Shown here in pieces: positions 10,001 to 64,000 of a DNA stretch of 64,000 nt (position 1 is the stretch's first letter; each line of letters starts with the position of its first letter). Made by a program: the position numbers and the translations under genes. The DNA comes from Stramenopiles sp. TOSAG23-6 (taxonomy: Eukaryota). The notes under the pieces were generated by a model that saw only the letters and a program-made list of their open reading frames with translations, was not told where the DNA came from and searched no databases. The stretch spans positions 1 to 64,000 of the forward strand of contig LT635912.1 in the NCBI GenBank assembly GCA_900128565.1, in the 5' to 3' direction.

Positions 10001-11036
10001 CAACTGCTTCTTTTTCTGCCTTTTTCAAATCTTTTTCAATAACAACTGCTTCTCGTTTTATTTTTCCACCGATTACAACTGCTTCTTTTTCTGCCTTTTT
10101 CAAATCTTTTTCAATAACAACTGCTTCTCGTTTTATTTTTCCACCGATTACAACTGCTTCTTTTTCTGCCTTTTTCAAATCTTTTTCAATAACAACTGCT
10201 TCTTCTTTAACCTTTTTGCCTATGATATATGCTTCCTTTCCTATTTGTTTGGCACCCTTTTCGACTGCTTCACCCAGTCTCCTAAAGATATTTTCCTTTT
10301 TCTTTGAGCTATCTTTATTTTTATGATGTTTTCTGTGAAACATGGAAAAACGTTTCTTTTCTGATAAGTTATTGTCAGATGTTTTATTTACGGAATCATC
10401 AGACGCATCGGATTTTGCTTCAACCTTTGTTTTATTTACGGAATCATCAGACGTATCGGATTTTGCTTCAACCTTACTAGATGTATCACTAGAGCTAGTA
10501 TCTACGGGTTCTGATTGACACTCTTGAGTAAATAGCTCTTTGTGATGTCTTTTGTACCAGGTAAAATATTGGTCTACAGTTACTAAATTATTCTCCCCAT
10601 TGGACATTTCTAAAAAAGCTTCATTTATTTTCTTAGAATTTCCAAAATGACTTTGAAGCTTATCACCCATTTGTATTGATAATTTTCCAATTTGTCGTTT
10701 AGTCAATAAGCCTTTGTTATCATTATCCTTTGCAATTTCTTTACAGAGGAATCTAATTTTTGCTTCTATTGTGTCAGGACTACTGGGGGTCTGAAGTTGG
10801 TACCACCAGATCATATCATCCATTGAAATTCTTCCTCTTTCAAAACGATCGAGTTGCTCAAACTTTACAGAATGGTGCTTCTTTCCCAGCATTTGATTCC
10901 CTTCATGATTTAGTAACTTTAATAATTTATTATATTGTAACTTATTCAAGAAACCAATGTTTTCCTCATCTATGAATTGAAAGGACTTGCGTAGTTCTGC
11001 TATTGATTTGTCCTGACTCTTCAATGAAGACGCCAT
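7013..11036 (-). CDS. Large protein with EF-hand-like N-terminus, 25-aa tandem repeats, SAM-like segment and coiled coil; exons 11036-7814 and 7719-7013
   Basis: FQFIDEENIGFL and LDRFERGRISMDD EF-like loops; join RAT|LEAKH continues the coiled coil. Confidence 0.75.
7720..7813 (-). other. Non-canonical GT-AT intron, 94 nt, phase 1
   Basis: CAT|GTATGT...GTACCTAAC...AATATTTTTCACAATACAT|TG. Confidence 0.88.
9671..10203. repeat. Coding minisatellite, 75-bp unit, about 7 near-identical copies (EAVVIEKDLKKAEKEAVVIGGKIKR)
   Basis: Period 75 in the DNA; degenerate copies flank the array. Confidence 0.95.
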
Positions 11037-18129: not shown

Positions 18130-19942
18130 TTACAATCGACCTCTCGACACTAAAATTGCTTTTTTTAATCCATTTAAATTTTTACGAATTTTAGCTTTTC
18201 GAAAGTCAATTTGAGCTTTTTTCTGTTTTATTTTTAAACGCTGAGCTTTTTCACGAATAAATGCTTGCTTGCTTCTCTTTTGTATTGTAATGTTTAAAGT
18301 TTTCATTTCTGATACTGTTAATTTCTTTCTTTTTAATTTGGGTACTTTGGAAATAAAAAGTTTTCCAATATGTGGTGGATTCCCACACGGTAAACCGTTT
18401 AATACTGGTCTTGGTGAATTCATTGATATGTTTTTATTTATTCTAAAAAAATATGTAAAATTTAAAATTTGTTAGGTACAAAATTTGGTAGAAATCTTTT
18501 TTTTAATTGATGAAATCATGAAAACGTATTTTTTTCTCTAGGGAATCATAAAACTTATTTCTTTGCTTTCGTTGAAGTGCATATTTTTCAGATATCTGCA
18601 AAATTTCTTGCTTTAATTCTTTGACATCTTCTCCATCAATCACTGGTTGTAACATTTCATTTTCATATTTTTTATTGTCAATCATTGGTTGTAACATTTC
18701 ATTTTCATATTTTTTATTGTCAATCATTGGTTGTAACATTTCATTTTCATATTTTTTATTGTCAATCATTGGTTGTAACATTTCATTTTCATATTTTTTA
18801 TTGTCAATCATTGGTTGTAACATTTCATTTTCATATTTTTTATTGTCAATCATTGGTTGTAACATTTCATTTTCATATTTTTTATTGTCAATCATTGGTT
18901 GTAACATTTCATTTTCATATTTTTTATTGTCAATCATTGGTTGTAACATTTCATTTTCATATTTTTTATTGTCAATCATTGGTTGTAACATTTCATTTTC
19001 ATATATTTTTTCAAAAGGATTGCTGATATTTAACTCTTTCTTTTCTTGCCGTTGCACTTCTGGAGGCGTAAATATCCTTGATTTCATGAGTGATAGTGAA
19101 GGTATAACCGTTGGGGTAGAGTATTTAAGTGGCCCTTTTTCTTTTTTTCTTTCTCTGCTTCTTTTTTCTTTATCATTAATTTCTATATCATACTTATGAT
19201 TATCCTGAATATTTTCTTCCTTTATTCTTTCACTGCTTCTTTTTTCTTTATAATGGAATTCTATATCATACTTTTGATTATCCTGAATGTTTTCTATTAT
19301 AATTTCTGTTTCTGATGTAATTCGAACTATACCTTGACTTGGAACTGTCTTCTTGACAATGCAGAATCCTTCTCGGTTTGTATTACCATACGGAGTGCAT
19401 GGAAGTTGAACTGTCGCTTCTAAAATTAAATAAATGCCCCATAAACTTCTTTTAAGTTCTACCTCCATCGATTTTATGTTATTCGAGTTTTCCCAACCAT
19501 AACCTTCTCGTTTAAAAAGTATTGTGACGGATACTGCATTTTGACTCTCCACTGACCAAAGTTTGACTATTGACAATGTTAGCGGTATAACAGTTCTTCC
19601 TAGTCGAAGTATATCCTTTTCAAATTGCCGAAGTTGAAAAGTAACTGGGAGGGACACATGTGGATTAATTTTACTTATATTTTCTTTGCCGTCATCATTG
19701 ATAAGAGCAACAGCGGTACAAAGGTACCAGAAAACACAATCATCTTCAAGCACAGCTACGACAAGTGGGTCACCAGATACTATTGGGCGTGAGTGAATAA
19801 AAGTTGACAATAAACTTGGACTTTTAGTCCTTCGAATGGCACATGTTGCTATTGAGGATGGAATGATTCCTTCGAGAGGCATAACTTTTGCTAGAAAATC
19901 TACACCCCGGGGCAAATTTAATCCATTACTATTGATAGACAT
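18130..19942 (-). CDS. Hypothetical protein with weak CDC48/PEX N-domain-like region and 14-aa tandem repeats; exons 19942-18530 and 18435-18130
   Basis: Long ORF plus downstream ORF joined in frame by a family intron (LEKK|KNISMNSP). Confidence 0.65.
18436..18529 (-). other. AT-AT intron of the same family, 94 nt, phase 0
   Basis: AAA|ATACGTTTT...GTACCTAAC...ATATTTTTTTAGAATAAAT|AAA; modal family length; an in-frame AC 6 nt further downstream is an alternative acceptor. Confidence 0.72.
18636..19004. repeat. Coding minisatellite, 42-bp unit, about 9 copies (YENEMLQPMIDNKK)
   Basis: Near-perfect tandem array. Confidence 0.95.
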
Positions 19943-43519: not shown

Positions 43520-46500
43520 ATGGGACGCATTGATTATATTGTATGTGAAAATTTTAAATCCTATGCTGGAATACAGAAAATCGGTCCTTTTAAGGGTTTC
43601 ACCGCCATCATTGGTCCGAATGGCTCGGGTAAGTCAAATCTAATGGATAGTGTTTCGTTTGTCCTGGGAGTATCATCTCAAAAGTTACGTGGTAAAAAGT
43701 TGCGTGATTTGGTATTTCAAAATGAAACTCAAAAACGTGGTCTGAGTGAAAAGAATGGTGCTTATGTTGCACTAACTTACATTGTGTCAGAGGGTGAGTT
43801 ATCAGGAATGGAAGAAGGTGACCGTTTGGAGTTCAAACGTTCTATTTCTCCTGCAGGCAGTAGCAGCTATCATCTTAATGGCCGTAAAGTTGGTTGGAAT
43901 AGATATAATGCGACACTAGAAAATTTAGGATTATTGGTTAAAGCGAGGAATTTCTTAGTTTTCCAAGGGGACGTGGAGTCTGTAGCTATGCGTTCTCCAA
44001 AGGATTTGACCTCACTCTTCGAAAAAATCAGTGGTTCTGAAGAATTCCGTGAAGAATACGATACATTAAGTAAAAGTAAGTCCGCAATAGATAATGAGAC
44101 AGTATTTGCATGTGGTAGGAAGAAAGCTCTTGCGGATGAAAAGAAGAGAGCTAAAGCTGAAAAAGAGGAAGCCTCTCGGTGGAAGTTACAAACTGAAAAG
44201 TTATCCGATACTAAACGTGAGTTTTATTTATATCAACTTTTCCATATTGAAGCTGAGCGCAAAAGCGAACAGAGTACAGTTGATGATATTAAAGAAAAGA
44301 AAAAAGAAATTGAAGCAAAATTAGCTGCGGAGAATGCACAGATCAAATCTGCTAGGGCTGAACGCGCCAAGGCTTCACGAATATTCCAGCAATCTCAAAA
44401 AAAACTTGATAAAGCTCGACAAGCTGTCGATAAAGATCAACCTGCTGTGATTAAGCTACGTACTGAGATAAAACATAGCACAACACGAGCTCAACGTCTT
44501 AAAAATATTGGTATTAAAATTAAAGCTGATCATGATAATCAACTACAAGTGCTAAAAGATATGGAAGTAGATGTCGAAGCTGTACGTTCAATGCAGACCG
44601 AGTTTGAATCTCAAATACACGAAGAAAGTTCACAGCGACCAGAATTACATCTCACAAAAGAACAAGAAGCATTATACTCTGAAACGAAAGAAGCTGCACG
44701 GGCTAAAACGACAAAACTTCGCGTTCGCCTTGAAAAAGTTGAGAGAGATCAACAGCAAGATACTGACAGACTTCAGCGTTTGCAGGGAGAAGATTCGGAA
44801 CAAAGTGATCGTGTTAGATCTCAACGAGAAACTATAGCAACACTAGAAACTCGACGAAAACAAGTTGCGACAGCGATTCAACGAGATGAAGAAAAATGTT
44901 CAGAAGTGACTGAGAATATCAATACAATGAAAAAAAATATTGAGGAAAAGGAAGCGACATTTACAAAAAACTCTGACAATATTAAATCTGTCAGTGAACG
45001 CCTAGGACATGCAAAGGATAGTAAACGGCAAACGTCTAAAGAACAAAAAGATTCGCAATGTTTAGAAAGATTGCAGCGTACATGTATGTTTTATTTTTTT
45101 TTTTAAAACAAAAAATCGATTTTTTTTTCGTACGAAATTTTGTACCTAACAAATTTGAGTTTTTTTTTTAAATATTTTTCCAAAATACATTTAAAGGTGT
45201 CCACGGGCGCCTTGTAGATTTATGTAGACCAACTCAGGAAAAGTATAATGTTGCAATTACTGTAGCCATGGGAAGATTTATGGATGCGATTGTGGTGGAT
45301 ACGGAACAACTAGGTTTCGATTGTATACGATTTATGCGAGAACAGCGTTTGGGTCGAGCGAAATTTTTACCTCTCGACAAATTAAATCCAAAAATGATCA
45401 ATGAACGACTTCGTCAATTAGGTAGTTCTTGTCATTTGGCATTCGATGTCGTTCGATTTGATCCGATTTTTACGTTGGCTATTCAATATGCTTGTAGTAA
45501 TACTGTAGTCTGTGATGATTTAAGTGTTGCACGTCGTTTATGTCACACGGACGGACGAAATTTGAAAGTTGTCACTTTACAAGGTTATATGATTGCAAAA
45601 AATGGAAATATGACTGGAGGATTAACTGCGTCAAATATAGACAGAGCTCGACGTTGGGATGAACGCGAATTTCAGAAAATGAGGAAACAAGTAAAAACCT
45701 TGAAGTCACAACAAGCTGAATTACAACGTGAACTGGGAGGGGGTAGCAAAGTAGCGAGACATCGTGGGCGTATTGGTTCACTCATTGCTGAATTACGTGC
45801 AAGCGAATCCTCTCGTGGAACGTTAGAGAGCAAACTCGAATATGCTAAGAAAGAATTACAATCACAAACAATTCCAAAATTGAAAAAACTTCAAACGCAG
45901 TTACAAGAAGCCGAGAGTATTCTAGGTGAAATGCGACCTAAAAAACAGAAGTTAGAAGCTTCAATTGGAAAACGATCGAAAGTTATTGCTGATTTGAAGA
46001 AAAAAATTGCTTCGACAGAACGTAGTCTTTTTTCACAACTATCTAGTGATATTGGAATTGATATTATGGGAGCAACAGGAAGTGTTGCCGATTACGATGA
46101 ACAAAGGCATGAACGCCAAAGAGAAGTTGCTAAGGGGCGAGCTTCTTTAAAAGACCAATTAACGAAATTGATTGCTCAGCAGGATTACATGGCTAAACGA
46201 GCAGATAAAATTTTGTCTAAAGTAAAGCGATCTGAAAAGCATTACGCTACTGAAGAAAAACAATTAAAGAAATCAAAGAATGCTCTTGAAAAAGCCGAAG
46301 CAAATCTTGCTTTATTGAAAGACACAGTAGAAGGTTTGAAAGAAGAATGTAAGGTATTAGCACAAAAAAAAGAAGAAAAAGAAACGGAAGTCAAATTGTT
46401 TACGAAGGAAAAAACGGCAATATCTAAAACTCGAGATGGTTTTGTAAAAGAAATTGGTTCGCATGAAGCTCGAGTGGAACGTATGCGGGCTCGATTACAC

Positions 46501-47840
46501 ACCGTTCTTCAGAAAGCTCAAATGGAACAGGTTGAACTCCCATTACTTGATTGTGATGATTCAGATGAGGATGATGTAGATGATCCGATGGACACTGACA
46601 GATCTTCTATGTCGCGTTCGCAATCTCAGTCAGATTTTGGAATTTCTGGTTCTGAAAGTCAAGATGGAAGTAGTGTAACATCAGGCTCGGCCACTATGAG
46701 GTTTAGTCAACGAATGAGTACTGGCGTACGACGTAATCGTAATATTGCCGCACAGATTGATTTTTCAGCATTAAAACGAAATCGTGATGTAGAATTATCG
46801 CAGAGTGAACACACGGTAATTCATAAACAATACGTAGCTACCATTAGAGAAATTGTTGGTGATTTAGAGACAATAAAGCCAAATATGCGAGCTTCAGCGG
46901 CATATGACAAAGCTGATGAAGATCTCACGAAACAAACTGCGGAATATTCTACAGTCAGAGAGACACAAAGAACGACTGATAAAAAGTTTGAAGAAATACG
47001 AAAATTTCGCCACGCAGCATTCATGGAAGCATTTGCGCATATATCTACGGTAATTCCTGCTGTGTATAAAGAACTTACAAAAAGTCCTCTCCATCCAACA
47101 GGTGGTTCTGCTTACTTGACATTGCAGAACCAAGAAACGCCATATCTTGGAGGTGTTAAATATTGTGTTCTTCCTCCAGGAAAGAGATTTCGTGATATGG
47201 AACAGTTATCTGGTGGTGAAAAAACAATTGCAGCTTTAGCTTTATTATTCAGTATACATAGTTTCAAACCTGCTCCATTTTATGTAATGGATGAAATCGA
47301 TGCAGCGCTTGACAATGTGAATGTTCAAAAAGTTGCTAACTTTATTCGCCTACGTAGTAAAGGGAGTCCGTTTTCATTTCAATTTCGTATCTAAGTTTTT
47401 GTTTTCGTAGATAATGTTGTACCTAACATTTTTTTTTTGAAATATTTTCTCAAAATACATGTATTCATTTAGGAAATGCGAAGCTTCGTGGAAGTATTAA
47501 TACAGACAGTGACGCTAATATTTTAAGTATGACTCAAAGTCAAAATGAAAATGAAAATGACTTGTTGGTATCAAAACCTGAAAAAGGTCTTCACTTTGAA
47601 GGTACACAGTTTCTTGTGATTTCACTAAAAGATTTGTTTTACAGTAAGGCAGATTCATTAGTTGGTGTATGCCGCGATGAGAAAAAATGCTGTTCGGTAA
47701 CAATGACGTTAGATCTCACTAAATACGAGCGCAGTAAGGAAAATGATGACACGCAAAATAACCAACAAAATATTGTCAATGAGGCTATCCAGGATGATGA
47801 TGGCGAATATTCTCTCATAAACGCCAGTCATAGATATTAA
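43520..47840 (+). CDS. SMC1: Cohesin subunit SMC1; exons 43520-45083, 45191-47365, 47461-47840
   Basis: [27 protein letters not shown], hinge [34 protein letters not shown]. Confidence 0.97.
45084..45190 (+). other. Non-canonical GT-AT intron, 107 nt, phase 1
   Basis: CAT|GTATGT...TTTCGTACGAAATTTTGTACCTAAC...CCAAAATACAT|TT; restores [12 protein letters not shown]. Confidence 0.9.
47366..47460 (+). other. Non-canonical GT-AT intron, 95 nt, phase 1, donor GTCCGT
   Basis: GGA|GTCCGT...GTACCTAAC...CTCAAAATACAT|GT; links in frame to the terminal QFLVISLK exon. Confidence 0.85.
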
Positions 47841-48070
47841 AGGTGATTTCTATCAGCTTTGATGTTTACTTGATGTGTTTTTTTTGATGTTGTTTTTGGT
47901 ATAAAAAACATGACTCAAAATGAATATGACCAAATGTTAGAGCAACACCTATGTATTATTTTATACTAATTATGCGTTTTTTTGCATTTTTTTACTCAAT
48001 AAAACGTATTATATACAGTATCTATGACTAAGACACTTTATTGATTTTTTTATAATTACACAATCTTCCT

Positions 48071-49480
48071 TTATTCATAATATATTTTACGTCGTTTCAC
48101 TGATCGTTTTACTTCTCCACCTGTTGTTGGAAGTAGTGGACTTTTTGCAAGTTCTTCAGCACTACGTGGATTCTTTTCGTTTTTTTCGTTAGGCACAAAA
48201 TTTGGTACGGATTCTAGTTCATCAAAATCATCATGAAAATCATCCATACCTGCCATTTCCGCATCAAGAAGAGCATCCATAGCTTCATCCATTGCATCTT
48301 CACCAGACTCTGTGCCTCTGTGAACATTATTACAATCAGAATCTTCAACGGCCTCTTGAGTAGCTGCAACGAATTCCTTAACAACCTTTTTTACATAACT
48401 TTTATGAAAAATTTTACTATTAGGATTATTTGGAATTTGTGATGTACGCGAATCAGAAAATAAACGATAGAAAAATTGTAAATGCTTGACTGTAAACTGA
48501 AATCGGTCATAATAAGCTACCATTTGTCCAGATGCTAATGCTAGTCTATGTCCGATGAAATTTGGAAAAATTAAATTTTCACTATTTTTAAATGCACCAA
48601 CATCAAAATAAGGATGTTCATAATTCATGTCAGAGGCTGCAAACGAAAAAGCGATTCTAGGTGTGTGATATCCTTTTCTCCCAGCGCTACCCCAATGAAT
48701 AATTCTATGTGAAAACATCACTGCAGATCCAGCAGTTGCAGGAAGTGCCTTGATGTTTTGATATGCTTCTTTATTGTGTAGAGCTCGTTGGAGTGGATCT
48801 GGATCGTCATCATTTGGAAGATCACCTTCCTCTGGCCCATAGCCTGGGTCAAACTGACGAGGGATGACATAAAGACATGAATTATCAGGACACGCATCTG
48901 TCAATGGAATCCAACATGTTGAATATTTAGGTGAACCATTTTTTCGAAATGAATTTGGTAAGTCTTCTGGCTGCCTATCTCTATGAGGTGAAAATCCTTT
49001 ATGACCTTTATTAGGGTCAATATACCAAGCAAGAAAATCGAAATTGTTCTGATTACCACCAGAAGTGAACGCAATCAACTCAGAAACTTCACGTGCCATC
49101 GCCCAGCTCTCGTCATATAATAGTATAAACGTTGCTGGCCAACCATGTTGCATAAGAGTTACAATTGACCTAGCTAATGCAGCAGTATTTCCTACCCAGG
49201 GCAACCTACTAGTTTGGAAATAACCATCTTGATTCATTCTATTTTTGAGGTTCTGCCAGTCATTATTAGAGTTTTTGAATACTTTTACTTTTTGCTGCCA
49301 AAGTGTATCACAAACATGTAATTCAGGACATAACTTTTGCCAATAGGACACGTCGTTTACAACGTCAATTGGGTCGATGACACTAGTACTCCCCGAAAAG
49401 TCACAAGAAACGTGCGAAAGAAGAGACGCAAGTGATTTTACTGAGAGTTTATCTACATTATCAGGATTATCAAGTGCCAT
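48071..49480 (-). CDS. PhyH-family 2OG-Fe(II) dioxygenase
   Basis: PHRD, CWIPLTDACPDNSCLYVIP, IIHWG. Confidence 0.85.
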   Translation of the reverse strand: MALDNPDNVDKLSVKSLASLLSHVSCDFSGSTSVIDPIDVVNDVSYWQKLCPELHVCDTLWQQKVKVFKNSNNDWQNLKNRMNQDGYFQTSRLPWVGNTAALARSIVTLMQHGWPATFILLYDESWAMAREVSELIAFTSGGNQNNFDFLAWYIDPNKGHKGFSPHRDRQPEDLPNSFRKNGSPKYSTCWIPLTDACPDNSCLYVIPRQFDPGYGPEEGDLPNDDDPDPLQRALHNKEAYQNIKALPATAGSAVMFSHRIIHWGSAGRKGYHTPRIAFSFAASDMNYEHPYFDVGAFKNSENLIFPNFIGHRLALASGQMVAYYDRFQFTVKHLQFFYRLFSDSRTSQIPNNPNSKIFHKSYVKKVVKEFVAATQEAVEDSDCNNVHRGTESGEDAMDEAMDALLDAEMAGMDDFHDDFDELESVPNFVPNEKNEKNPRSAEELAKSPLLPTTGGEVKRSVKRRKIYYE

Positions 49481-50279
49481 GTAAACACTTTACAGTTTAT
49501 AATAAGAGTAGCGTTTTTCTACCAGTACTTGAAGTGGCTTATGAATACGAAGAAAAGAGAAAGTGTAGTGTGCTGTGGCATCATCAGTTGTTCTTTCTGT
49601 TGTGTCACACTGACTTGAGGCTGCAGTCGCACGAAATCGTGATTTTCAAAAAACGTCTTTTTTTTGACGTTTTTTCAAAAAACGTCATTTTTTCGACGTC
49701 ATTTTTTCGACTTTCCGATCCGCAAGAGTACGCAGAAACAACGTTTTGAACAGTTAAAAAAGAGTGTTTTCAAAGTTGGTTGCTGTTGTCCCATTTGTCA
49801 GGTCATTACCCTCAAGATGAATCAACAATGTTTGGCAATGATGTGTATGACAAGTTGGGCTCAAAATAATTTTGAAGATAGTATGAAAACTCAGTGTATA
49901 TTGCGTGAACTTGAGTCTGAGCATCAGCTGCTTAATTAATGTACAACATTTTCATTGTAGAAAAATTTTAAAGGAAAAAAAAAAATTGAACCCTAACACA
50001 AAAACACAAAACATTTTATTCACTAATGAGCTCTCTTTGGTCTACTCAAGCATGGGATAATAACCTTTGTCCGTCAAACAATGAAGGAGCACCTTCTCAA
50101 CGTGAATGTACTACTCTACGTATAAAACGTTATTTTTCGCGCGTTTGGAAAAAAAATGCGTTTTCGTGTGCTGTGAGCCTGACTTTGGAATTCGTTCTGG
50201 ATTTTTGCCAAATTTGCACGATATAGATCAGAATTGATCAGCTGTCGATTCTTTCATCATCAGCAGAGTCTTCTTCAGA

Positions 50280-50756
50280 ATGTTCAGTTATGTTGGAAAT
50301 TCAGTAATGACATTCATTATGTCACACCCACTTATGATATGTGCCTGTTTGTTTATTCTTTACCGTATTCGGCAAGCGTCACAGCCAATTCCGGACTATG
50401 GTGGAAACGTTAGAGTAGTTCATTCTTTGATGGAGTGGAAAGCTATTCAGAAAGAAGCTATTGCAAAAAACGTACCAGTTATCGCTGACTTCTATGCCAA
50501 TTGGTGCCCCCCTTGTAGAATGGCGGCTCCAGTATTTGCTGAATTGAGTCTAGAATATGATAGAGTCATATTCTGCAAGATTAATGTTGATAACTGTAGA
50601 GATGTATGTTCAGCTGTCAACTTCTCTGGAGGAATTCCTCAATTCCACTTGTATAAAGACGGTTCTAAGCAGGATGAAGTAGTTGGTTTTAGTAAGGGTA
50701 GATTAGAAGGTCTTGTATCCAAGTCAGGAGCATTACAAGTTAAAAAATCCTCATGA
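50280..50756 (+). CDS. Thioredoxin with N-terminal membrane anchor, WCPPC active site
   Basis: DFYANWCPPCR, KINVD, GIPQF. Confidence 0.92.
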   Translation: MFSYVGNSVMTFIMSHPLMICACLFILYRIRQASQPIPDYGGNVRVVHSLMEWKAIQKEAIAKNVPVIADFYANWCPPCRMAAPVFAELSLEYDRVIFCKINVDNCRDVCSAVNFSGGIPQFHLYKDGSKQDEVVGFSKGRLEGLVSKSGALQVKKSS

Positions 50757-50786
50757 TGATAAAATAATATAATTGTTTTCTTTTTA

Positions 50787-53700
50787 TTATCTTTGTTTGT
50801 CTTTTCTTACATTAACTAGCAAAAAATATGCCACTATTCTGAAAAGTAAACCAAATATAATAAGGCAGATTATATCAAAAGCAAAATCAGGCTTCCGATG
50901 CTCCTCAGGGGCATTTTTGTCATATTTACTCATGAGACAACTAGCATCATCGGAATTACCACAGTTGTCCCAGTCCATAAAACAACCATCTTTCTCTCGA
51001 AGTCTTTCAGTATTCTGATTCTGATTATTAAAACTGTCAATACATTTCTGGAGTACTGTAGTTGGAAAATCAGATTCGTGGCCAATACCCATTTCTATCC
51101 AAGTCAGTGCTCTTGCGGACCACCTACTATATGCCCAATATGCGAACTTGCCAGCCTTTGGGACATATCCACCAAAGAGATTAATCAATACTGCAAATAT
51201 GACAGAAGTTAACGTAGCAAGTGACAAATCAGTTTGAAATGCACAGCCAACTGCGTAACCCATTCCAGATACAGTCCATACAACACAGAGAGCCCATTGT
51301 AGATATGAGCTTGTTGGGCCTGCAACATCTACAATGAGTGCTACAGGTGCGATAAAACAAACAGCCCCGATACACTGGAGGGGGAAATCAACCAAAACTA
51401 CTGCCAGAAAATACGCAAGTTTATTTACACCAGCACTTGCTTCACGCCAAAACACAATCTTCTTTTGACCACAGAATGATACACAAGAGACAGATGCTGC
51501 ACAGACACCAAGAGCCATTGTCATGAAAAAACCAAATGGGCCCAATTCATTTCGAAGAGGTTCAAAGCATATTTGTGTAAAAATATTCTTTTTGTACAAT
51601 TTGTTAGGTATGGAATTTCGTACGAAAAAAGAAATCGAAATGGAAGAAAAATAGAAACATACATTTCCATTCAGCACCCGATGGGCAATTTTTCGAATAT
51701 TCATTGGCACCTCCTCTTGGCTCAATTAACAGTGGTTCAGATCCAAAGATGATAGCAATAACAAAACCATCAAATACAAATGCAAGTAAGTCAAATCCCA
51801 ATTGGTATGTGCGAAAAAAACGAATTCTAATATTTTGTACAATAAAGGCTCTCAATTGAACAAAAAAAACAGGAGCTTCTTTCGACGTATCTGACATTGT
51901 TTTGTTGTTTTCTGGTGTAAGTTTTGTATCTGACTTCGTTTCCGTTTTCATTTCCTGAAATGCTTTTGATAATTGGTTAGATGCAAGACGAGATGCATTA
52001 ATCTGGGATTTCACATTTTTTGTAATAGTGCTACTTTTGCTTTGACCACCATCATTTTCAATTCTACCGCATAAAACATCCAACACAAAATCTGCGAAAT
52101 TGTCATCAGAATCTTTTTGGTACCCCATTTTTGCAAAGTGAGCTTCCGCGAGGCTAGCTTGACCTAAATAAACAGTTTTACCACCATATCCAAGTAACAT
52201 CAATGTATCGATTTGATTGTATATTTCAAGCCGAGGTTGATGTAGTACACTCACGACAGTAACTCCACCATTTGCAATGGTTTTCAATGCTTTCATTACC
52301 CCAACTGCTGTACTCGAATCTAAGCCACTCGTTGGTTCATCTAATAAAATAGCTAAAGGATCCATTACCAACTCTAATGCAATATTGACTCTTTTTTTCT
52401 GTCCGCCACTAATTCCTCTTCTGTACTCATCTCCAATGATGACGCCTGCAACGTCTTGAATGCCCAGAACATTCAGTACAGCTTCGACTCTATCTTTAAT
52501 ACTTTTCTCTGATACTTGTCTTGCACTTAAACGCGTTTTGGCAGAATGTGTTATGGCTTCTCGAACTGTGAGTTCTGGATGCATGACATCAGATTGAGGC
52601 ACAAAACCAATACGTGACTTAAAATCTGTTAAACATCCTTCTTTTTCATTGATAAATACTGTACCATCAGTATGCTCCAATTTCCCCGCAATGATATTAA
52701 GAAAAGTAGATTTCCCCGCTCCACTAGCACCAAGAATACACATTAAATTACCAGGTTTAATTTCGCCATTCGTCCCAGATAAGCGAAACTTCTGCGATTG
52801 TTTTTTTTTGATACAACAACCACAATATTTATATTGAGTTGGAATCTTCAATGCGAGGGAATGAAATTTAATAGATATCGAATCCTTTTTCGTTGTAGAG
52901 ATTTTTTCGACTTTACTTTCTTGAGTTTTATTTTCTTGAGTTCCGAGATTTTGCATTTCAACTTGTGGTTGTTGGGAAACTTTACTTTGTCCTTTTCGAA
53001 AAAAACATACCAAAAAAAATTGTCCGCCCACTAAAACAATTACAATAATAAGCAAAAATGGTTCTGAATTTGATTTTGCCCCTTCGGCGCAAATGGATAA
53101 TTTCCCACATTTTTTTGGAGTTTTTGATCCCCTTGGACAATAATAACCTTTAGGACAAATTGTTTTAGTACCTGCATATTTGTCACAATAGTACCCAGAC
53201 GGACATGCCACAGGATATTGATTTTCCTCGCAGTGTAAGCCTGGAGCACATGCAGTCAATGTGACGATACATTGAGATAAATCTCCAGCTTCTTGATAGA
53301 TGTGTCCTGGTTTATGAGACACCCATTTATATGGATCCTTACAAGTATTTTGGGTGGTTGCAGAGGCGTTTCCTTCACAACTACCTAAAAAACTTCGAAA
53401 TTCATGACTGTTCATTGTGGCTTTTGCTTTTGTGTTTTTTTTTTCTAAATCACAGACAGATAATAATTGCTCGCGAAAGAAAAGTATTAGAAATGTGTCC
53501 TTTTCGTGGGCAGAGTTAAAATCAGCACCATCTATTGGCCGTGTGCACACAGCTTTTGGCTTCTGACTCATGGCATGATACAGTTCAAGAAGTAGCGTTC
53601 GTGAAGCAGTGACATCTTTACACATACTGCACTCGTTAGAAAAGTTACTTGAATTATCAGAAACACTCGTATCACCCATTTTTTCAAAGAATATTCTTCC

Positions 53701-53907
53701 AAAACATGTATTTCGTTGATTTTGGTTCCCCATTACCCCAATAATATTTTGAACTGCTTCTTTCGTTGGACTAGAGGAAATGTTCAATTTGTTTGTTAGC
53801 CAAACTTGAACCTCTGTGAGACAGCTCGACGTAATAGAAGAATTAAGTTGACTCGCATTCACATTCAATATCACTAAACACAGAAGTAGCATTAAAATAT
53901 ATTCCAT
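50787..53907 (-). CDS. ABCG half-transporter with Cys-rich extracellular N-terminus; exons 53907-51663 and 51568-50787
   Basis: GASGAGKST, ISGGQKKR, LLDEPTSGLD, LHQPR, FWREASAG; CPxGYYC repeats. Confidence 0.92.
51569..51662 (-). other. Non-canonical GT-AT intron, 94 nt, phase 1, acceptor TAT
   Basis: AAT|GTATGT...TTTCGTACGAAATTCCATACCTAAC...ACACAAATAT|GC; join EWK-CFEP. Confidence 0.85.
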
Positions 53908-54234
53908 GGCGAAAGTAATCCAAATTTACTCGCAATATAAATTTTCTTGGGGAGTTTAGGTTCTTTTTTGTCGAAGAGAGAAACTTTCAAATTTCAGCAA
54001 GTGAAAATTTCAAAATTCGCTGAAAATCAAATTTGAAATTCAAATTCAAATTCAAATCGAAATATAATTGACAAGGTACAAAAAAAACATATAAATGCAA
54101 GTCCCTTACCGCAGAATTTATACATACGTAGATATTAGATATATTTGAGATACTGCTTTATTTTTTGGTAATTAAAAAAAAACGAATTCTATCTATTCTG
54201 GAATCTTCTATCTATTCTGGAATCTGGATGAAAA

Positions 54235-56109
54235 ATGGTTCATTTCTTGACTACATTGATATATCTTTTGTATTATCACTGCATACATGCAAATGATGAC
54301 CAATGTAATGAAGCTATAAAAAAGCAAAAGATAAACGTGAATAGTTCAGAGTGGAAACTGTCACCAAATCGTGTTGTTATGGACAGTAACTTTAAATGGG
54401 GTCGAGTTGTAGTTCCCATCTGGACGTCAGTATTTTTAGGCACTAATGATTCTCTCCCACACTTGGATAACACTTTACAAATTTTATCCTCATTTGAGAG
54501 TGATGAACTTGCGCTTGTTACAGTCGTAGGTGGTGGCGCTTATCTCCGTATTCTTGAACATATGGAATTTAGTTCTATTCATTTCTTTGACGCAAACGTT
54601 AACGAGTTAAGTAAACTTCGACTTGTTCATGACGATATTATCAAATATGACTATGATACATGGATAGCAAATGGTGGAATGCAGTCTGTAGCTAATAAAA
54701 TTTCCTCACTGCGGGAAAAATTTTACCTGCCAGCCCCACTTCTAACAGCAGGTGTAACCCTGCATCCTGCAACTGACTTTGAGTGGCCGATTCCTGGTCA
54801 GAGTAGTTATTATGATCCATTAGGTCGACGAAATCCACTTTGGTCAATTTTCCCTCCTTTATCTTACCCAGAGTATGCATGGAAACCAACTCGAAAGGGT
54901 TATGAGAGAGTACGCAGACAATTGAAATATCGTGTGGCAAATGAATTTTATTTATCAGTTCCTTGTGGCATCATTCCACCTAATATTCTTTCAATAGTTT
55001 ATGTTGATGGAATCAAAATTCCAAAATCAACAATACGTGCGGTTTCACGTTCGGGTGATGCTATTGGTTTATGGTCGATGGTTGAAGACCAAAAATTACT
55101 CGGTAGGGGAAATAATTCAGATTGGTCAGATTCCCATTTCTTTTGGGAGCTCGCAGTTCGTTGGAGGATTGAAAGTAGCACTACAGTAATAAATAATACT
55201 AGAATCGGTATGGATAATATTGTAAATAATGTAATGCATATTTGGGCAATTGAAGATATAAATATGATGGGAACAATCTACGATTGGATGTTTACAAGTA
55301 GCATGGAAGCATCGTCATTTGCTTCGTCTACTGTGACGACTTCAACACCCAATAAAAAGGAGACAGACAAATCTTTCAATGAAATCATTGTTTTCCATAT
55401 TCTACTTGGTAAAGCAACTACTAAAACGAATTGTTCAAAACGCGAAGAATTATTTATGAATGCGTTGATTCGAGCTGTAAAAGAACCACATGTAAGAAAT
55501 GTTCTAGTTACTGAGCATAACACCTCTTCAAAACAATTTGATATTTTAACTAATCCATGTGCATTAAATGCAGCTAATATCAGAAAACTTATCAACAAAA
55601 CATTGTCATTAACACCAGACAACATCAAAACGAACATAATAGCTACTCGTTTTCTACCTGGTGGTGGTACTCATGATAGAAATGTATTATTTGATATTGC
55701 AGTAAATGAAGGAATTCCATCAAAAAATGGTAATAAAAAAGAAACTTTCCTTGAAGATAATAATAAATCTATGAGACCAGCAACTATTCAACTTCAGATT
55801 GATGAAAACACGAAAAAAAGGCCTATTATTTTTCCATATGATGGGTCTGTAAAAGTATTACAATCTCTCGCGGCTGCTGCGTGCATGGATATTCCTCTTA
55901 CTGATAAATCATGTATGTTTTATTTTTTTTAATTTCGATTTTTTTTTCGTACGCAATTTTGTACCTAACAAAAATATTGAATGTAAAATATTTTTCAAAA
56001 TACATGCATAGACCAAATTATGAATGAAATGAAAAGAATTATAAAAGAAGATAAAAAATCTTCTGCGAGGGCGATTCGCCCTGAAAAAGAGAGCAAGGTG
56101 ATTCAATAA
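54235..56109 (+). CDS. Hypothetical secreted protein; exons 54235-55912 and 56006-56109
   Basis: Signal peptide, long ORF; join DKS-CIDQIM. Confidence 0.7.
55913..56005 (+). other. Non-canonical GT-AT intron, 93 nt, phase 1
   Basis: CAT|GTATGT...GTACCTAAC...AATATTTTTCAAAATACAT|GC. Confidence 0.85.
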
Positions 56110-56183
56110 GGATAATTACAAAAGTATTACTTTAATAATGAATAAGTAAAAAGTTTGTTAGTTTTGGTTTGTCTTCCTTTTTT

Positions 56184-56909
56184 TTAGTTTATCGTCTTTT
56201 TTTTCTTAGAAGGTAGTTTACTTGCAATTGTTGGCTGAACTCCCTCATCCAATCTTTTACGCTTCTTCTTTGTAGTTTGTTTTTTCATACTTGTCTTTTC
56301 ATCATCTTCAATATCGACGTGTTTTGATAAATCTTTTTCTGTCTGAGCATTATCTTCAAGAGATAGATTATTATTATCTTCAAGAGATAGATTATTCAAT
56401 ATCCATTTAAGTAACTCATCACCTTCAATCATACCAAATCTTTCTATTAGAGTATAATTCTTATCATTTATTGGACGAAATGTTTCATACCCGTGGCGAA
56501 GTTCTGCCATACGATTGATGGTTCTTTGATCCCATCCAGGACGAATATTTCGCGAAACTGCTTCAAGAGCTTTTTTGTTTGATTTAGACATGAGTGAAAT
56601 GACAAGAATTTTATAGCCTTTCTTCTCAGCCAAAGCTGCCAAAACTCGAAAGTTCCTGAGTTTCATGTTTAAATTATCTAATATTACCAAAGGCTTCTTA
56701 TCCATAAGGGCTAATGTGCACTTGTTTGCACACCAAGGTATTGCACAATCACAGTGAGTGCTAAGTTGCCATCTTCGGCCTTTATTTTGTGGTTGTAGCC
56801 ACCATCGATCGTTGCTACACACAACAGCACCATGGTCTTTTTCAAGTTGATTGGAAAGATAACTTTTACCCATTCCTGTTGTGCCTCTCAAAATAATAAA
56901 ATTCTGCAT
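56184..56909 (-). CDS. P-loop kinase (AAA_33 / N4BP2-like) with basic NLS-like tail
   Basis: ILRGTTGMGKS, VCSND, VILDNLN. Confidence 0.8.
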   Translation of the reverse strand: MQNFIILRGTTGMGKSYLSNQLEKDHGAVVCSNDRWWLQPQNKGRRWQLSTHCDCAIPWCANKCTLALMDKKPLVILDNLNMKLRNFRVLAALAEKKGYKILVISLMSKSNKKALEAVSRNIRPGWDQRTINRMAELRHGYETFRPINDKNYTLIERFGMIEGDELLKWILNNLSLEDNNNLSLEDNAQTEKDLSKHVDIEDDEKTSMKKQTTKKKRKRLDEGVQPTIASKLPSKKKKTIN

Positions 56910-57192
56910 GTTGTTGGGTATATTACAATTTGAAACAGTTTAATTATCAAATCAAACTGAAGATATATCTTATTTTCTTCAAAGATACTGATTTGAGATT
57001 GATTAGGCCTAATTCCGAGTGACACGATCGCCGAAGATCGACTGTTTCTGTTTTTTTTCGTTTTTCGTGTCGGTGTTTGTTTGCCGTTTGTTGGTTCGGG
57101 AAAATTTGAATTCAAATTTCAGCAAAAATTTCAACAACAAAACAACACAACACACAATAAAGAGTTTTGAATTTATCGTTTTAAAACTTACG

Positions 57193-59675
57193 ATGAGATT
57201 GATGAGACTTTTTATATATCATTTTGCATTCGTTCACACTGTTGCAGCAGAAGCATCTTTTGTGTTAAAAAGTTATGAATGCGTCGCTGGCTTCGATTGT
57301 ATGTATCAAAACAGTTGTGCTAATGATGAAGGAGTTTCTTGTCCCATTGGCCGGTTCTGTGGCAGACCCAGTTCTTTCCCCAATGGACTTTTTCAATGTG
57401 ATGGTGACCATAATCAAAGTTGTCCAGGTAGTGAATTCCCAGATGATAGGTGGAGAACTTCAAAGTGTGCCACGGGTGCATACTGCCCGACGACAGTAAC
57501 AAATCAAAAATGTGAAGCTGGATACTTTTGCCCAAGAGGGTCTGTCAAAAGAGTCAAGTGTTCAATAGGTTCAATATGTGGCGAAGCATCACACTTTCCA
57601 ATTGGATTTTTGCTGTTTGGTTTCGCAATACTTTTGTTTATTTTTTATATTTTATGCCGTCGCTTTTGTCTCACGACAAAAATTGGTCATACGATTTCAA
57701 ATGATGGTTGCGAAAACAAAAAAGAACTTCCAGTTTCTAAGAAACTGAAAATGCCATTTCCTCTTCAATTCGAATTTGATAATATATGCTGGAACTTTCG
57801 AGATAAGCCTATTCTTCGTGGTGTATCGGGTTCTGTCAAAGCAGGTGAAATGATTGCAATTATGGGTCCATCAGGAGCAGGTAAAAGTACACTAGTAAAT
57901 TGTCTAATGTCACGGTATACCCCCAGTACCGGAACAGTAACAATAAATGGATACAAAGATATTGAATTCTCTAGTATATGTGGAATAACTGGTTATGTCC
58001 CACAAGATGATATAATGTTGGCTAAATTAACAGTCAGGGAGAATTTAATGCATTCAGCAAATACTCGAATAAATTCTCAAGTAAAAGCAAATTACTCTTC
58101 AAAGGCTCGTGTTGATTCTGTACTCACCAGTCTAGGTCTAGAACATGTACAACATTGTATAGTTGGAGATACCCGTAAGCGTGGACTAAGCGGTGGTGAA
58201 AAAAAACGTGTATCGATTGGTCTTGAACTAGTGGCTAGTCCGTCTGCAATTTTTCTTGATGAGCCTACGACAGGGTTAGACTCATCCGCGGCTGAAGTTG
58301 TGATTAATCAATTAAAACTCTTTGCTAATGAAGGACACGCGGTTATAGTAATTTTACACCAACCACGTGCTAGTATATTCAAACAATTCGATAATATCCT
58401 TTGCTTAACATCTAGAGGCGAAACATTTTACTTTGGAAGTCCTCTTAAAGTTCGTGACTTTTTAAACCAAATACAAAATCCATGTCCATCGGGGAAAAAT
58501 CCAGCAGATCATTTAATTGACATTGCAACGAAAAAGGGTAAAGTATCAATGACATCTACCCCAACAAGTATTTCGGATAAATCTAAAACAATCTCAGAGA
58601 ATACAGTAAAATTTGAAGATCCAAGATTAAACATCAAAGGAAAATTAGCGAGTTGGGGAGCCCAGTTTTTATTCTACTGGAAACGTTCCTGTGTACAACA
58701 GCTACGAGATTCCATGGCACTGTATCTTTATTGTGGTCTTGTTTTCCTCATGGTTGCTTCTCTCTCAACTGGTTTTTCACCTTTTATCCAAGAAAATCTG
58801 GAGAGTGTTTACAAACCACCCCTCGGCAAATCATTGAGAGATTATTGTCCACCACACAATAAAGCATGTTCTGGCAGCATTAACGACGATGGATTAATAC
58901 AAATGATGTTTTTCTACTGTATGTCAATTGGATCAATTGGAATGCTTGCTGCATCTCGAACATTTTACAGAAGTGAAATGATAGTAATGAAAAGAGAATC
59001 AAATATTGGTCTATCCTCATCTGCTTGCATCATTGCAAAAGTTTTTGCTGATTTAAATGTAATTATATTACTATCATTGCTCGCATCAGGACTATGGCTT
59101 GCCATGGGTTATCCGGGTGGACCTGTTCGTTGGTTTGTTCTTACTTTTTCATTGTTGTTTACTTGCTACGGATGGGGATATTTTGTTTCACAAATTGTAT
59201 CCGATGATATGATTATGACAGTATGTATGGTGTACGTTTTCATACTAAATTTTGTACCTAAGATTCTTTTCATCCTAGTGTTTCTCTTTTGCTCACATTT
59301 TCTAAAAATAATTTTACTTTTCGAATGATTCCAGTTGTCATATTCTAATTTTACATTTTTTCTGACGTATAATTTAATTACAGCACTGCTCTTGGCTTAT
59401 CTGCTTTTAATGGTGTGAATCCAAAACTTGTGGATGTTCCTTGGCCGTGGAGAACCATCTGGGGCATGGGATATAGTAGGTGGATTTCCGAAGCCATATT
59501 TTCCACCTTTACAATGCATGATAGAAACAGTGGCTTACCTGTGCAATTTGCTGCATCGAGATTTGGCTATGATGTCTCCGACAATCAATTTATTCTTGAT
59601 ATTGTAGTTGTAGTGATACAAGGAACCTTATTGAGAATATTTACAGGATTTTTGATTGTTAAAAAGAATACATAA
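57193..59675 (+). CDS. ABCG half-transporter with Cys-rich N-terminus; exons 57193-59231 and 59384-59675
   Basis: GPSGAGKST, LSGGEKKR, FLDEPTTGLD, LHQPR; join VCMV-TALG. Confidence 0.92.
59232..59383 (+). other. Canonical GT-AG intron, 152 nt, with a degenerate family-derived 5' half
   Basis: GGT|GTACGTTTTCATACTAAATTTTGTACCTAAG...TTCTGAC...TTACAG|C; restores frame. Confidence 0.85.
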
Positions 59676-59795
59676 AAGATTTAGAAATAAAAACCATCAG
59701 AGATATTTTTTAAATGGCTTAATATTCAGAGCACTTCTTCAGAATGCAGGATTTTATTTGAGTAAAGTTGAACCGTTTATAAATGACCTAATCGT

Positions 59796-61023
59796 TCACG
59801 CATTTGCTGCTATTTTATCTGCTTCACCTACTATTATCGTTGATTCTGTCGATATTGCAAAATCTTCGGCCATATCCAAACTAGAACTTCTTTCTTCTTC
59901 TTTTGCTGCTTGTACTGTTGTTTCTGCTTCTTTCAATTTCAAATTTGCAACTGAAAAAACAAATGTTTCCTCTTCTTTCTTCCTCTGACAACGAAATTTC
60001 CAACGGACCTGATTTACATTTGTTTTATCTGGATCATTAGATGTCACTTCGTATCCTTCAAATGTTGGTATACCTCCTAACCATTTTTGCTTTTTTGTTT
60101 TTGGAAATCCACTTTGAATTACGCTATTTCGTGCAATTTCAGATATATCAGTTGTACTAAGGCACCATATCTGTCGAGCTATGGAATATTCTTCTAGTAG
60201 AGGTGCATCTGATAAATGAAATATCATAGGATCATCCGTGGATAAACTAACATTTAACCCTCGCTTGAAGAATTTATAAAAGGGTTGATCTTCGTATCTC
60301 ATGAATAGAACATTGTTTGATACTGGTGAAACTGCGAGCCCAATATTATCTAGATAGTAAAGATATTGCATAACTATATCATTTGCTAATCCAATTCCGT
60401 GATTAATTCCATTAGCCAATAAATAAGTAGTACAAAGATGATGTTTGGAACCACTTTCACCTGCATGTGGACGCAATGAAAAAGTATTCATTCCTTTAGA
60501 ACGCCTTAATGAATTCAATCGGCTAATATTTGCATAAAGGTAATATAATTGATAAGAATATGGAGGATTTTGTTCCGATGTCCAATCTTTTGGAGTTGTA
60601 ACCTTTCCATCAATTGTTGCAAGAGGGAGATCAAGTAAGCTTTCATCATCGACAGAGTCAAATCCTGAAACATCTTTTAGAAATTCTGAAAGCTCCGGAT
60701 ATTTTTTTGGTTTCTCAGTTGCATCAAAAAGAGGTTGAAATATATTATATATAACTTCTTGATATGATGTTACTTTTTTCAATTTGTGAAATATGCGGTA
60801 AATGTATTGTGAAAAAATATTTTTACTCGAAATATTTTGTTAGGTACAAATTTGGTATAGAAAAAAATTAAATTTAAATTTTGAAAACATATATTCTTGG
60901 AATTTGAATAAGCCATCGATTGTGTGGCTGCTGGACTAGCTTATTATTGAGAGCCCATTTTGCAAGTTTATCCCATGCATCAATGTTATCACCATAAATG
61001 GATAAACGATACTCTGCCCACGT
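59796..61023 (-). CDS. AMP deaminase, C-terminal part only; exons about 61023-60893 and 60801-59796
   Basis: AEYRLSIYG, WLIQIPR, FDSVDDES, LRPHAGESG, SLSTDDP; N-terminal half not present upstream. Confidence 0.88.
60802..60892 (-). other. AT-AT intron of the same family, 91 nt, phase 2
   Basis: AAT|ATATGTTTT...GTACCTAAC...CACAATACAT|T; restores QIPRIYRIF (an equivalent AT-AC register is possible here). Confidence 0.85.
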
Positions 61024-63491
61024 CCATTGATGCAGACATCCGGCGATATTGCTGCAATTGTTTTTCAAATTGATTACTTTGTGTGTGCGTATCATTCAAA
61101 GAGTGTGACATATTTATATCAAAATTATTTTTCATATATTGCGTCATTTCTTGTATTCCGCCAAGAGAACCACTACGCCCACGTCTTACAGGAGGCGATT
61201 TGACAAATTTTGACCCAGATGAAGATGCACGAGCTCGTTCAGGCCAAAGTGAGTGCAAATCAGGGTCTGACGGAGTTCTGCTCATGTTAAAACTATTTCT
61301 TTGCTGACGAACATTTCTACTATTATCTGGTGTTTGCCTCAAATAACCTCTTATTTGTGTAGGTGTTGTTGGTGAACCCAAAAAAGTTGAATTAGGATGT
61401 CGTGGGGGTGTTGACCCCAGAGGGGTTGGCAAATTTGATCCTAGTATCATTATAGGCGATTTTCTTGAGATATTAGTGTTAGGGGACGCATGTCCTATTT
61501 GTTGAAATTGCGGCGGCGTATTTATGGAACTGTTCAAACTTGTTGGCATGCTATTATCTGATGATGTGCTTAGTCTATGTACCCTGTCTGCAGTCATAGG
61601 AATACTATTATCTGATGACAAGCTTAGTCTATGCCTTTCAACGACTTGTCCGACAGTTAACGGTGCATTTGAATGTAATCTTTCTAATGAACTTGCAACA
61701 CTGTATTGAATAGGACTTGATGATGATGCAACCTGCATATTAGGATTCGATCTATTGCTTCCAGGTGATAAAGGGTGACAATTCCGAGGTATAGATAAAG
61801 GTAATGCAACAGACATTGGGGAACCAGCATCATTTTTTACATTGGTATATTGATTATGAGAACCAATACGTGATTGCTGTTGGGGTGACCAATTCTGTGC
61901 ACTTTGAGATGGATAGGTTCTTTGATGTTGAATCATATGAGGCATCATTGGCTGTCGTGGGGAGTAATGTGGACCTTCACTCATTGGAGAAGATATTGAA
62001 GGATGTTCCATCGACCGATCATTCTTATACATGACTTTCATTTGTCCCATATTTTGACGTCGTGCAGAGTGTTCCATACCAGTAGATGAAGACAATGCAC
62101 CTTGAGGTCCAGAATATTGTATATACTGCTGACGAGAATTCGAATAAATATTATTTGGATTGGGTTGAAATTCAGGTTCAACATATTTTTGTGGTTCAAT
62201 AGCAATATTATTCTGTTGGCCTCTTTGCTGTTGATAGTATCTATTCTGTACCATCATAGCAAATCCTGGTCCTAAATGGTCTGGAAGTGAATGTGGTCGG
62301 AAATGATCATGTATTTCGGAAAAATATTATTTTTAGTAAAAATTTGTTAGGTACAAAATTTGGTACAAAAAACAAATTCGAAATTCAATTTTGAAAACGT
62401 ACATTTGGTTGACTTGCTCGGTATAACTCTGGAGGAGATCTATAAGGAGAGTCTAATCGCAAAGGGTAGCGATACATGAGATTATGATTCCCACTATGTA
62501 TTACACTCTTAGTCTGTTGTTGTATATCTTGGGTATAATGAGTATCATGATAGTGTCTTGCTTGGTTTCGTACTCTTGGGATATTTGAACTCTGTTTTTC
62601 TACCTCTTGATTAGGGTTAGGGTTACGTTTCTTTCTCACGTCTTGGCCATCAGAAGCATCTTTCCCTTCCGGTCGATCAGCATAATTATTAATAATACAA
62701 TCAGTGACATTTGGTTGTCCAAGAATTGAACCTGAGAGATCAAATCCACAGTCTTTTGCATACATTACGCTAGCTTTTAATTCACCGAACGGTGTTCCAA
62801 TGGGAGAAAAAAAATATTTAGAAGTTTCCCGATTTGAGTTAAAGCTCAATGGCAGAGAACCATCATTGCTCACTGCATTTGCGCCAAATTCATAATTTAT
62901 ATGTGTTGTTGACAAATTGGACCGTTTCGTATTTCGCATCAGACCATATGCAGGTAGAACTCTAACAAAAGCAAATACCGATCGAAGAAATATTGCAATT
63001 CGCTTATAAACCTGTCTTAGTTGAGAGGTCATATCTCCATACTTTTTTAAACTTAAGTCTGCACCACCAGATGGATCAAAGTGTAAACTCCAACGCTCAA
63101 GTAATATACGTGACGAAGTTGTGTTATCATTGTGATTCTTGGCTTCTACAGAGGGTATTCCGACACCAGAAAAATGACCAGCACAAGCTCCACCCCCGCC
63201 CATCCAAAATATGTCACACTCTTTGAATGGTAAATATGGATCATGCTTCCATGGTTCTAGCTCTTTGCGCACAAAATCTATGTTTTCTATGTGCAAATTA
63301 AATGGCGGCCTCGTCTTCTTCTTTTGAGTCCTTTGAGGAGACTGAAAACGAACACGAGATTGTAACACAATCTCCGATATTTTGAACAAAGATTCAAGTA
63401 CAATACGTTCACACTTTCCTCGCTCATTCTTTTCCAAAGCATTACCTTGTGCAGATTGCCGGCGTTTAATTGCACTAGAAGGTGCAGACAT
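60989..63491 (-). CDS. ATG13: Autophagy protein 13 (HORMA domain plus Ser/Pro-rich disordered region); exons 63491-62403 and 62308-60989; C-terminus possibly truncated
   Basis: IVLQSR, FNL, LLERW, YKRIAIFLRSVFAFVRVLPAY, TPFGEL. Confidence 0.85.
62309..62402 (-). other. Non-canonical GT-AT intron, 94 nt, phase 0
   Basis: AAT|GTACGT...GTACCTAAC...AATATTTTTCCGAAATACAT|GAT; joins the two ATG13 ORFs in frame. Confidence 0.88.
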
Positions 63492-63744
63492 TATGAAAGT
63501 CCCACGTGGGTGGGAATGATTCCCGCTGTCCCCAAGAAATGCTTTTATAATATTTTATCAGTGAAATACTAATGTTGTCCGATTTCGAGATTGATTGTGT
63601 TTTGTCGAGAAGAACTTTCTTTTCACCAAAATGAAACTGTTTTTTCCTGTTCAACTGACGCAACATTTTTTCATAATTAATTAAACGTATATTTGTGACA
63701 GTGATACATTTTACAACAATAGTTGAAATTAAAAGCGACGATAG

Positions 63745-64000
63745 ATGGATTTGGCAGAAGAATATGAACAATGTGGTCTTGGTGCATATCAGCCATATTA
63801 CGACAAACTTTTACTTGAACACCCTAAAACTGTTGGCTCATCTGTGTCGTCGAAAGAACGTCGAGGTAAAACATATACTGGCTCTAAATTTGTGTATGGT
63901 GAAATACGATTTGACTCTTTTTCTCTGGCAATACATAAAGTTCGAATATATGGTGGATTGAAAACCCCCGGAGGAATTTTCTACGACCTTGGGTCGGGTA
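63745..64000 (+). CDS. DOT1-like class I SAM methyltransferase, 5' part, runs off the window (not in the ORF track)
   Basis: Manual translation MDLAEEYEQ...FVYGEI...GIFYDLGSG. Confidence 0.8.
   Translation, partial: MDLAEEYEQCGLGAYQPYYDKLLLEHPKTVGSSVSSKERRGKTYTGSKFVYGEIRFDSFSLAIHKVRIYGGLKTPGGIFYDLGSG

Follow-up and report, generated by a model that had tools for sequence, protein, structure and literature searches.

A single A-first copy of a GT-AT intron family in an AMP deaminase gene, with AT-AT as its candidate terminal pair

The AMP deaminase locus

An AMP deaminase gene lies on the minus strand of the window, by which we mean the whole 64-kb stretch of DNA analyzed here, and it is divided into two pieces by 91 bases at 60892-60802. 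The upstream exon piece (60893-61032, in a frame that stays open to 61095) carries the homology HQWTWAEYRLSIYG...WLIQIPRI+, and its frame closes with ...NRWLIQIPRIY (AEYRLSIYGDNIDAWDKLAKWALNNKLVQQPHNRWLIQIPRIY) at 60889. The downstream exon (59799-60801) encodes the C-terminal catalytic half of the enzyme in a frame of 347 codons, (IY)RIFHKLKKVTSYQEV / (IY)RIFHKLKKVTSYQEVIYNIFQPLFDATEKP, which runs from 60803/60797 to the stop codon at 59796-59798. The interruption falls in phase 2, with 67 codons open before it and 334 after it.

The downstream piece matched PDB entries 26xc and 2a3l at an E value of 2e-81, and the upstream piece matched at 6e-10 and 4e-09. On Pfam PF19326 (profile length 630) the upstream piece covers positions 305-349 and the downstream piece positions 348-624, and the motifs RPHAGESG, GFDSVDDES, and SLSTDDP are kept in the structure alignment of the downstream exon. 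Residue Y413 of the Arabidopsis AMPD is both the last residue of the upstream match and the first residue of the downstream match; the protein therefore has a single Ile-Tyr at this point, and the 91 bases must go. A metagenomic relative that is 69% identical (P0005, locus L001) reads VPRIYRIFRQIG / ...NQWVIQVPRIYRIFRQIGAVSSFQD... without interruption at PRIY/RIF (the slash marks the join), and tblastn of P0005 against the window returned two pieces whose overlap is the Ile-Tyr only (70.6% identity over 238 aligned columns). The initial annotation had proposed that removal of the 91 bases restores the frame at a WLIQIPR(I/L)Y motif, and the PRIY/RIF join, which matches PDB, Pfam, and P0005, bears this out. 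All four relatives with continuous cover (L001 to L004, 46-69% identical, L001 possibly being a cDNA) are without an intron at the site.

The catalytic domain is not complete, since only PF19326 positions 305-624 of 630 are present. A scan of 45 long ORFs in the 64-kb window did not recover positions 1-304, and the tblastn matches to P0005 begin no earlier than its residue 230. When 77 residues of P0005 were used to look for a same-assembly N-terminal half among proteins of at least 136 residues, 10 matches were returned, none of them from that assembly; this carries little weight in either direction. The deaminase piece is immediately preceded on the minus strand by an ATG13 gene (PF10033, 62388-63554), which an in-frame GT-AT family intron at 62402-62309 links to a 445-codon low-complexity frame. 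Between 60992 and 61095 this frame overlaps the beginning of the deaminase frame (region 60989-63554, minus strand). Judged from this arrangement, the ATG13-deaminase junction may be a mis-joined contig, a gene fusion, or a rearranged or truncated gene that is possibly dead.

The downstream exon is partly covered by RNA-library contigs from two separate studies (X6 at 59968-60229, X8 at 59747-60008), a weak argument for the leading explanation given below, as such libraries can contain DNA. Among the 117 matches of the "longer" protein search, the only near-identical protein was P0001, a EukProt CDS of 324 amino acids named GSMAST32..., apparently from the same assembly. Its gene model begins at an ATG within the intron at 60802-60892 and, further on in the exon, drops nine residues; standard annotation thus gets this locus wrong. 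The next named matches were from amoebae and kinetoplastids. Elsewhere, the gene set of the window includes DUF4116, a bacterial/fungal-type bestrophin, and a URC-type GTP cyclohydrolase. The closest record and this gene set are both indicative of a marine protist rather than a tunicate. Large ORFs at 9275-10315 and 18552-19097 contain long tandem arrays that keep the frame, with units of 75 and 42 bases, respectively, and two identical 45-base tandem units at 435-524 end in GGGTTAGGG, a telomere-repeat-like motif.

A family of GT-AT introns in the window

The 91-base interruption belongs to a repeat family with 15 full copies in the 64 kb, found on both strands. A typical family intron is about 95 bases long, starts with GTAYGT, has the core TGTACCTAAC, and ends in ...CAMAATACAT; the blocks common to the copies are the donor GTAYGTTTT, TTTTTTTCGTACGAAATTTTGTACCTAAC, and the tail AATATTTTTYCAMAATACAT. 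Excision from GT to AT joined long frames of the same phase in 12 of the 15 copies, and in 2 more it led to short terminal frames (5 and 33 codons). All 15 copies have T at +2, G at +5, and AT as their last two bases, the 51662 copy being counted after its 3' end was shifted one base to fit the frame.

To place the AMP deaminase copy, the 14 other full copies were used to build a profile, and an nhmmer scan of the window with it gave 20 matches. The copy was matched at 60889-60802, over model positions 4-96 of 96, with an E value of 4e-9. Its identity to the 14 others in the alignment is 58-81%, which indicates that the family is not very young. As the initial annotation had noted, this member has A rather than G at +1: the base at 60892 is A, and the other 14 full copies have G. 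Its 5' hexamer is ATATGT (60892-60887), vs GTATGT or GTACGT at the same place in the family copies, and its 5' terminus on the minus strand reads ATATGTTT. The family core is present at 60839-60848 and includes a CTAAC box 37 bases from the 3' end, a putative major-type branch site. In the alignment of the 15 copies, TTTTCAC and AATACAT (60802-60815) close the unit, whose final 20 bases are ATATTTTTTCACAATACAT and whose 3' terminus is ...TTTTCACAATACAT at 60802. An AG at 60827-60826 sits between the CTAAC box and the 3' end; it would be skipped here, as such an AG probably is in other family copies. We also compared contigs of RNA runs X6, X7, and X8 and of DNA run X3 with positions 44001-64000 at 90% likeness. 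DNA contigs of X3 (n = 47) resembled the unit from 60802 upward and diverged below, so the family likeness ends at 60802.

The bases flanking the unit allow more than one reading of its borders. The dinucleotide before it is AT in 11 of the 15 copies, CT in 3, and GA in 1, and AT-AC ends are therefore also possible in many copies, and not in four. One of the copies where they are impossible lies in the GTP cyclohydrolase II gene (38078-37982, ct/GT...AT/gt). The sequence before it matches PDB 7ej3 residues 224-286 and the sequence after it residues 290-419; with the 64th residue, the split codon, and the first residue downstream included, the match has no gap. Since this copy excludes AT-AC and fits the structure without a gap, GT-AT is the register common to the family.

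Several other members and related sequences deserve mention in their own right. In the copy at 16511-16414 (minus strand) the 3' border reads ACAT/AGAG, and the open frames on either side (30 and 137 codons) agree with the AT end rather than with the AG that follows two bases later. The SMC1 copy at 47366-47460 was considered as proof of a junction and set aside: PDB matches break off at residue 1181 and start again at 1184, but some 45 residues that follow the intron are unmatched. These residues (47461-47600, plus strand) are without a counterpart in solved SMC1 structures and may reflect an insertion or a further unrecognized intron. A family-like copy at 18430-18529 (minus strand) has A at the homologous +1 (ATACGTTTTC) and was rejected as a second A-first case; its tail is diverged, it has no homolog, and eight end pairs are in frame, with AT-AT, AT-AA, AT-AC, and GT-AT among the possibilities. 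The ABC transporter gene contains a 152-base GT-AG intron (59232-59383, plus strand) that ends in ...TTACAG and whose first ~30 bases resemble the family 5' part and core (GTACGTTTTC...TGTACCTAAG); canonical and AT-ending introns thus coexist in the window. Over 44668-45334, sequences resembling the copy at 45084-45190 add up to depths in the thousands in two RNA libraries and in DNA. Such abundance in the RNA data may come from unspliced RNA, from excised introns that are stable, or from carried-over DNA.

Cut registers and the A at the first position

The AMP deaminase intron has Ile-Tyr codons at either border, ATA TAT upstream and ATT TAC downstream, and for this reason seven 91-base registers keep the same protein. 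Starts at 60894 (AT-AC), 60893 (TA-CA), and 60892 (AT-AT) yield one identical mRNA, and starts at 60891 (TA-TT), 60890 (AT-TT), and 60889 (TG-TA) yield a second. The seventh register, GT-AC at 60888-60798, yields a third. The codons of L001 at the join (ATC TAT CGT) are too diverged to pick among the three candidate mRNAs. Once the 3' end is set at 60802, the frame survives with a start at 60892 and with no other; starting at GT 60888 takes out 87 bases and disrupts it. AT-AT is therefore the register in line with the family. The initial annotation had weighed AT-AT against the equivalent AT-AC; its preference for AT-AT stands as the family-matching choice, but it had overlooked GT(60888)-AC, TA-TT, AT-TT, and TG-TA, all of which are in frame. 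It was right that the GT at +5 does not provide a conventional solution. Joined to the next AG (60774-60773), GT 60888 removes 116 bases and shifts the frame, and joined to the first AG (60827-60826), it runs into TAA in the wrong downstream frame.

A cut two bases upstream at both ends (60894-60804) would give the same mRNA with a textbook A-first/C-last pair, and the AT at 60894-60893, which repeats the AT at 60803-60802, makes it available. The donor would then become ATATAT, however, and lose the +5 G kept by all 15 copies, which ranks this register below AT-AT. The family register is also GT-AT where it can be fixed, in the GTP cyclohydrolase copy, and since 4 of the 15 copies have no upstream AT, AT-AC would make the AMP deaminase copy a special case. 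For these reasons we regard an AT-AC cut as unlikely. Use of the GT at 60888 with the AC at 60799-60798, or of the TA-TT, AT-TT, or TG-TA register, would give the same protein from another mRNA. The GT-AC version likewise takes out 91 bases, keeps the frame, and leaves the protein identical, but its donor, GTTTTC, agrees with the family hexamer at G+1 and T+2 only, and both of its ends lie four bases from the positions used in the other copies. Among the spliced readings GT-AC would rank lowest, and we consider this group very improbable.

The contig comparison over 44001-64000 (RNA runs X6, X7, and X8 and DNA run X3) was swamped by family cross-matches. Among the matches listed, none spanned the 60802/60892 join, which says nothing for either splicing or retention, and none had a different letter at 60892, from which no base call follows. 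An X8 depth of 3.6 at 60828, inside the intron, could come from a cross-matching copy, unspliced RNA, or DNA. No transcript-derived protein crossing the join was found with the first 110 downstream residues, either among the 117 matches of the "longer" search or among the 4 of the "near" search, all of which were at most 52% identical. A metagenome scan with the downstream exon gave 82 pattern matches, with no relative among them. The A at 60892 could in principle be an error in the consensus, the true minus-strand base being G and the copy an ordinary GT-AT intron. The window may stem from a small data set (16-18 million letters in runs X1 and X2), but an error at exactly this position is a priori unlikely and there is no sign of one; this is the explanation to which we give the least credence.

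G is kept at +1 in 14 of the 15 copies despite overall differences of 20-40% among them. The position therefore looks constrained, and the A may be a defect. A recent, disabling G-to-A change in a deaminase gene no longer under selection is thus a serious rival. The change would have disabled or crippled splicing in a gene that is truncated, dying, or on a mis-joined contig, and removal of the 91 bases would then not be required. The absence of PF19326 1-304 from the window would fit such a history, as would the way ATG13 and its long disordered frame run into the deaminase piece; the failure to recover an N-terminal half among same-assembly proteins points weakly, if at all, in either direction. 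Set against this, about 380 codons are open over both sides of the intron with the catalytic motifs kept, and the pieces retain their 70.6% identity to P0005. Record 7 of X3, an independent DNA contig covering 59211-60448, differs from the window at only 2 of 1,238 letters, no more than in the neighboring genes. On balance a defective copy seems possible, though not the expectation.

Our leading explanation, which we hold tentatively and with somewhat less than even confidence, is that this is a real intron, a diverged family copy with a G-to-A change at +1 that may still be removed at the family positions through an AT-AT cut. We infer both the splicing and the register from sequence. The machinery that removes the GT...AT copies would still excise this one, cutting before the A at 60892 and after the T at 60802. 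Positions +2 to +6 (TATGT) and the tail, both unchanged, would define the two ends, with the A at +1 being tolerated. The message after excision would read ...Pro-Arg-Ile-Tyr-Arg-Ile-Phe...

How an A at +1 might be tolerated can be considered in terms of the first and last bases of the intron. These bases touch in the second catalytic step, and the pairs are G...G or A...C in almost all genomes. A G1-to-A change stops the second step in the major spliceosomes that are well studied, except where the intron ends in C. One idea is that the first and last bases of this family are read as a G-U or A-U type pair rather than as G-G or A-C, in which case a T-ending intron would tolerate a +1 G-to-A change by itself. 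We consider this speculative and somewhat doubtful. PMC13326754 describes the G-G and A-C terminal pairs as isosteric; the main text of PMC2673412 gives no isostericity values for G-U and A-U relative to G-G. The more general rule put forward in the initial annotation, that a last T relaxes the constraint on a first G, is a conjecture drawn from one copy, in a gene whose N-terminal half is not in the contig.

If the idea is correct, the family as a whole would offer a natural test of how the first and last bases interact in the second step. A T-ending family with occasional A-first copies would amount to many natural mutants of this contact in one genome, and these mutants would show which terminal pairs the splicing machinery accepts. 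A-first copies would also account for the failure of standard gene models at the AMP deaminase locus. The value would lie in a genome-wide table together with RNA data rather than in the single AMP deaminase copy.

Comparison with known intron systems

What we describe is a single A-first copy in a GT-AT intron family, and A-first/T-last introns are already known in other systems. Precedents include U12-type AT-AT introns, which occur along with GT-AT (PMC1557818), and the AG/AT introns of Fritillaria (PMC13326754).

Non-canonical U12-type introns with these ends are known from human, mouse, and Arabidopsis, and also from Physarum polycephalum. Among 66 such non-canonical introns in four species, Table 2 of PMC1557818 gives 12 AT-AT and 7 GT-AT introns, and that paper describes AT-AN and GT-AT as competent for U12-type splicing. 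The system here is similar in that AT-AT, in the AMP deaminase copy, and GT-AT, in the family, occur together, as both pairs do in those U12-type data, and in that a constant 7 bases separate a conserved box from the family 3' end. The donor, however, is different. As the initial annotation had stated, it is not U12-type, being ATATGTTT vs the U12-type ATATCCTT, and the family consensus GTAYGTTT likewise departs from [A/G]TATCCTT, the motif given in a Physarum preprint. The family also differs in having no TCCTTAAC-like box ~10-15 bases before the 3' end, although an organism-specific variant as in Physarum is possible, and in having a yeast-like CTAAC box about 40 bases upstream of that end. 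An Rfam scan of the 64-kb window gave no match, minor-spliceosome RNAs included.

In the larvacean tunicates Fritillaria borealis and F. pellucida, introns end in AT more often than in any other dinucleotide (34% and 44%, respectively), and AG/AT introns make up 16% (PMC13326754). The same paper describes a YAY triplet that forms the last three bases of the intron and often also precedes the 5' site, with splicing by a U2-type spliceosome. Our family resembles this arrangement, since the unit ends in CAT and often has AT before it. It differs in that the second base is T, not G, and in that its usual donor, GTAYGT, is an ordinary one. The host is also protist-like rather than a larvacean, with GSMAST32... 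as the closest record, followed by amoebae and kinetoplastids.

U2-type AT-AC introns, such as those of SCN4A and SCN5A, share with the AMP deaminase copy an A at +1 in an otherwise major-type donor, and an AT-AC register exists here. They differ in that the register that keeps the +5 G here ends in T, C being last only in 60894-60804 (PMC1557818).

The family as a whole may also be compared with introners and transposon-derived introns. PMC7789003 describes Amoebophrya introners with direct and inverted repeats and non-canonical ends, whereas the introners of Micromonas and Aureococcus have canonical ends. Our family is similar in its many similar copies in unrelated genes, its short terminal inverted repeats (ATGTAT...ATACAT), and the 2-base direct repeat across its borders, and its AT end sets it apart from the Micromonas and Aureococcus elements. 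In the AMP deaminase copy, the G-to-A change at +1 breaks the terminal inverted repeat. The lack of an intron at this site in L001 to L004 is consistent with a lineage-specific gain.
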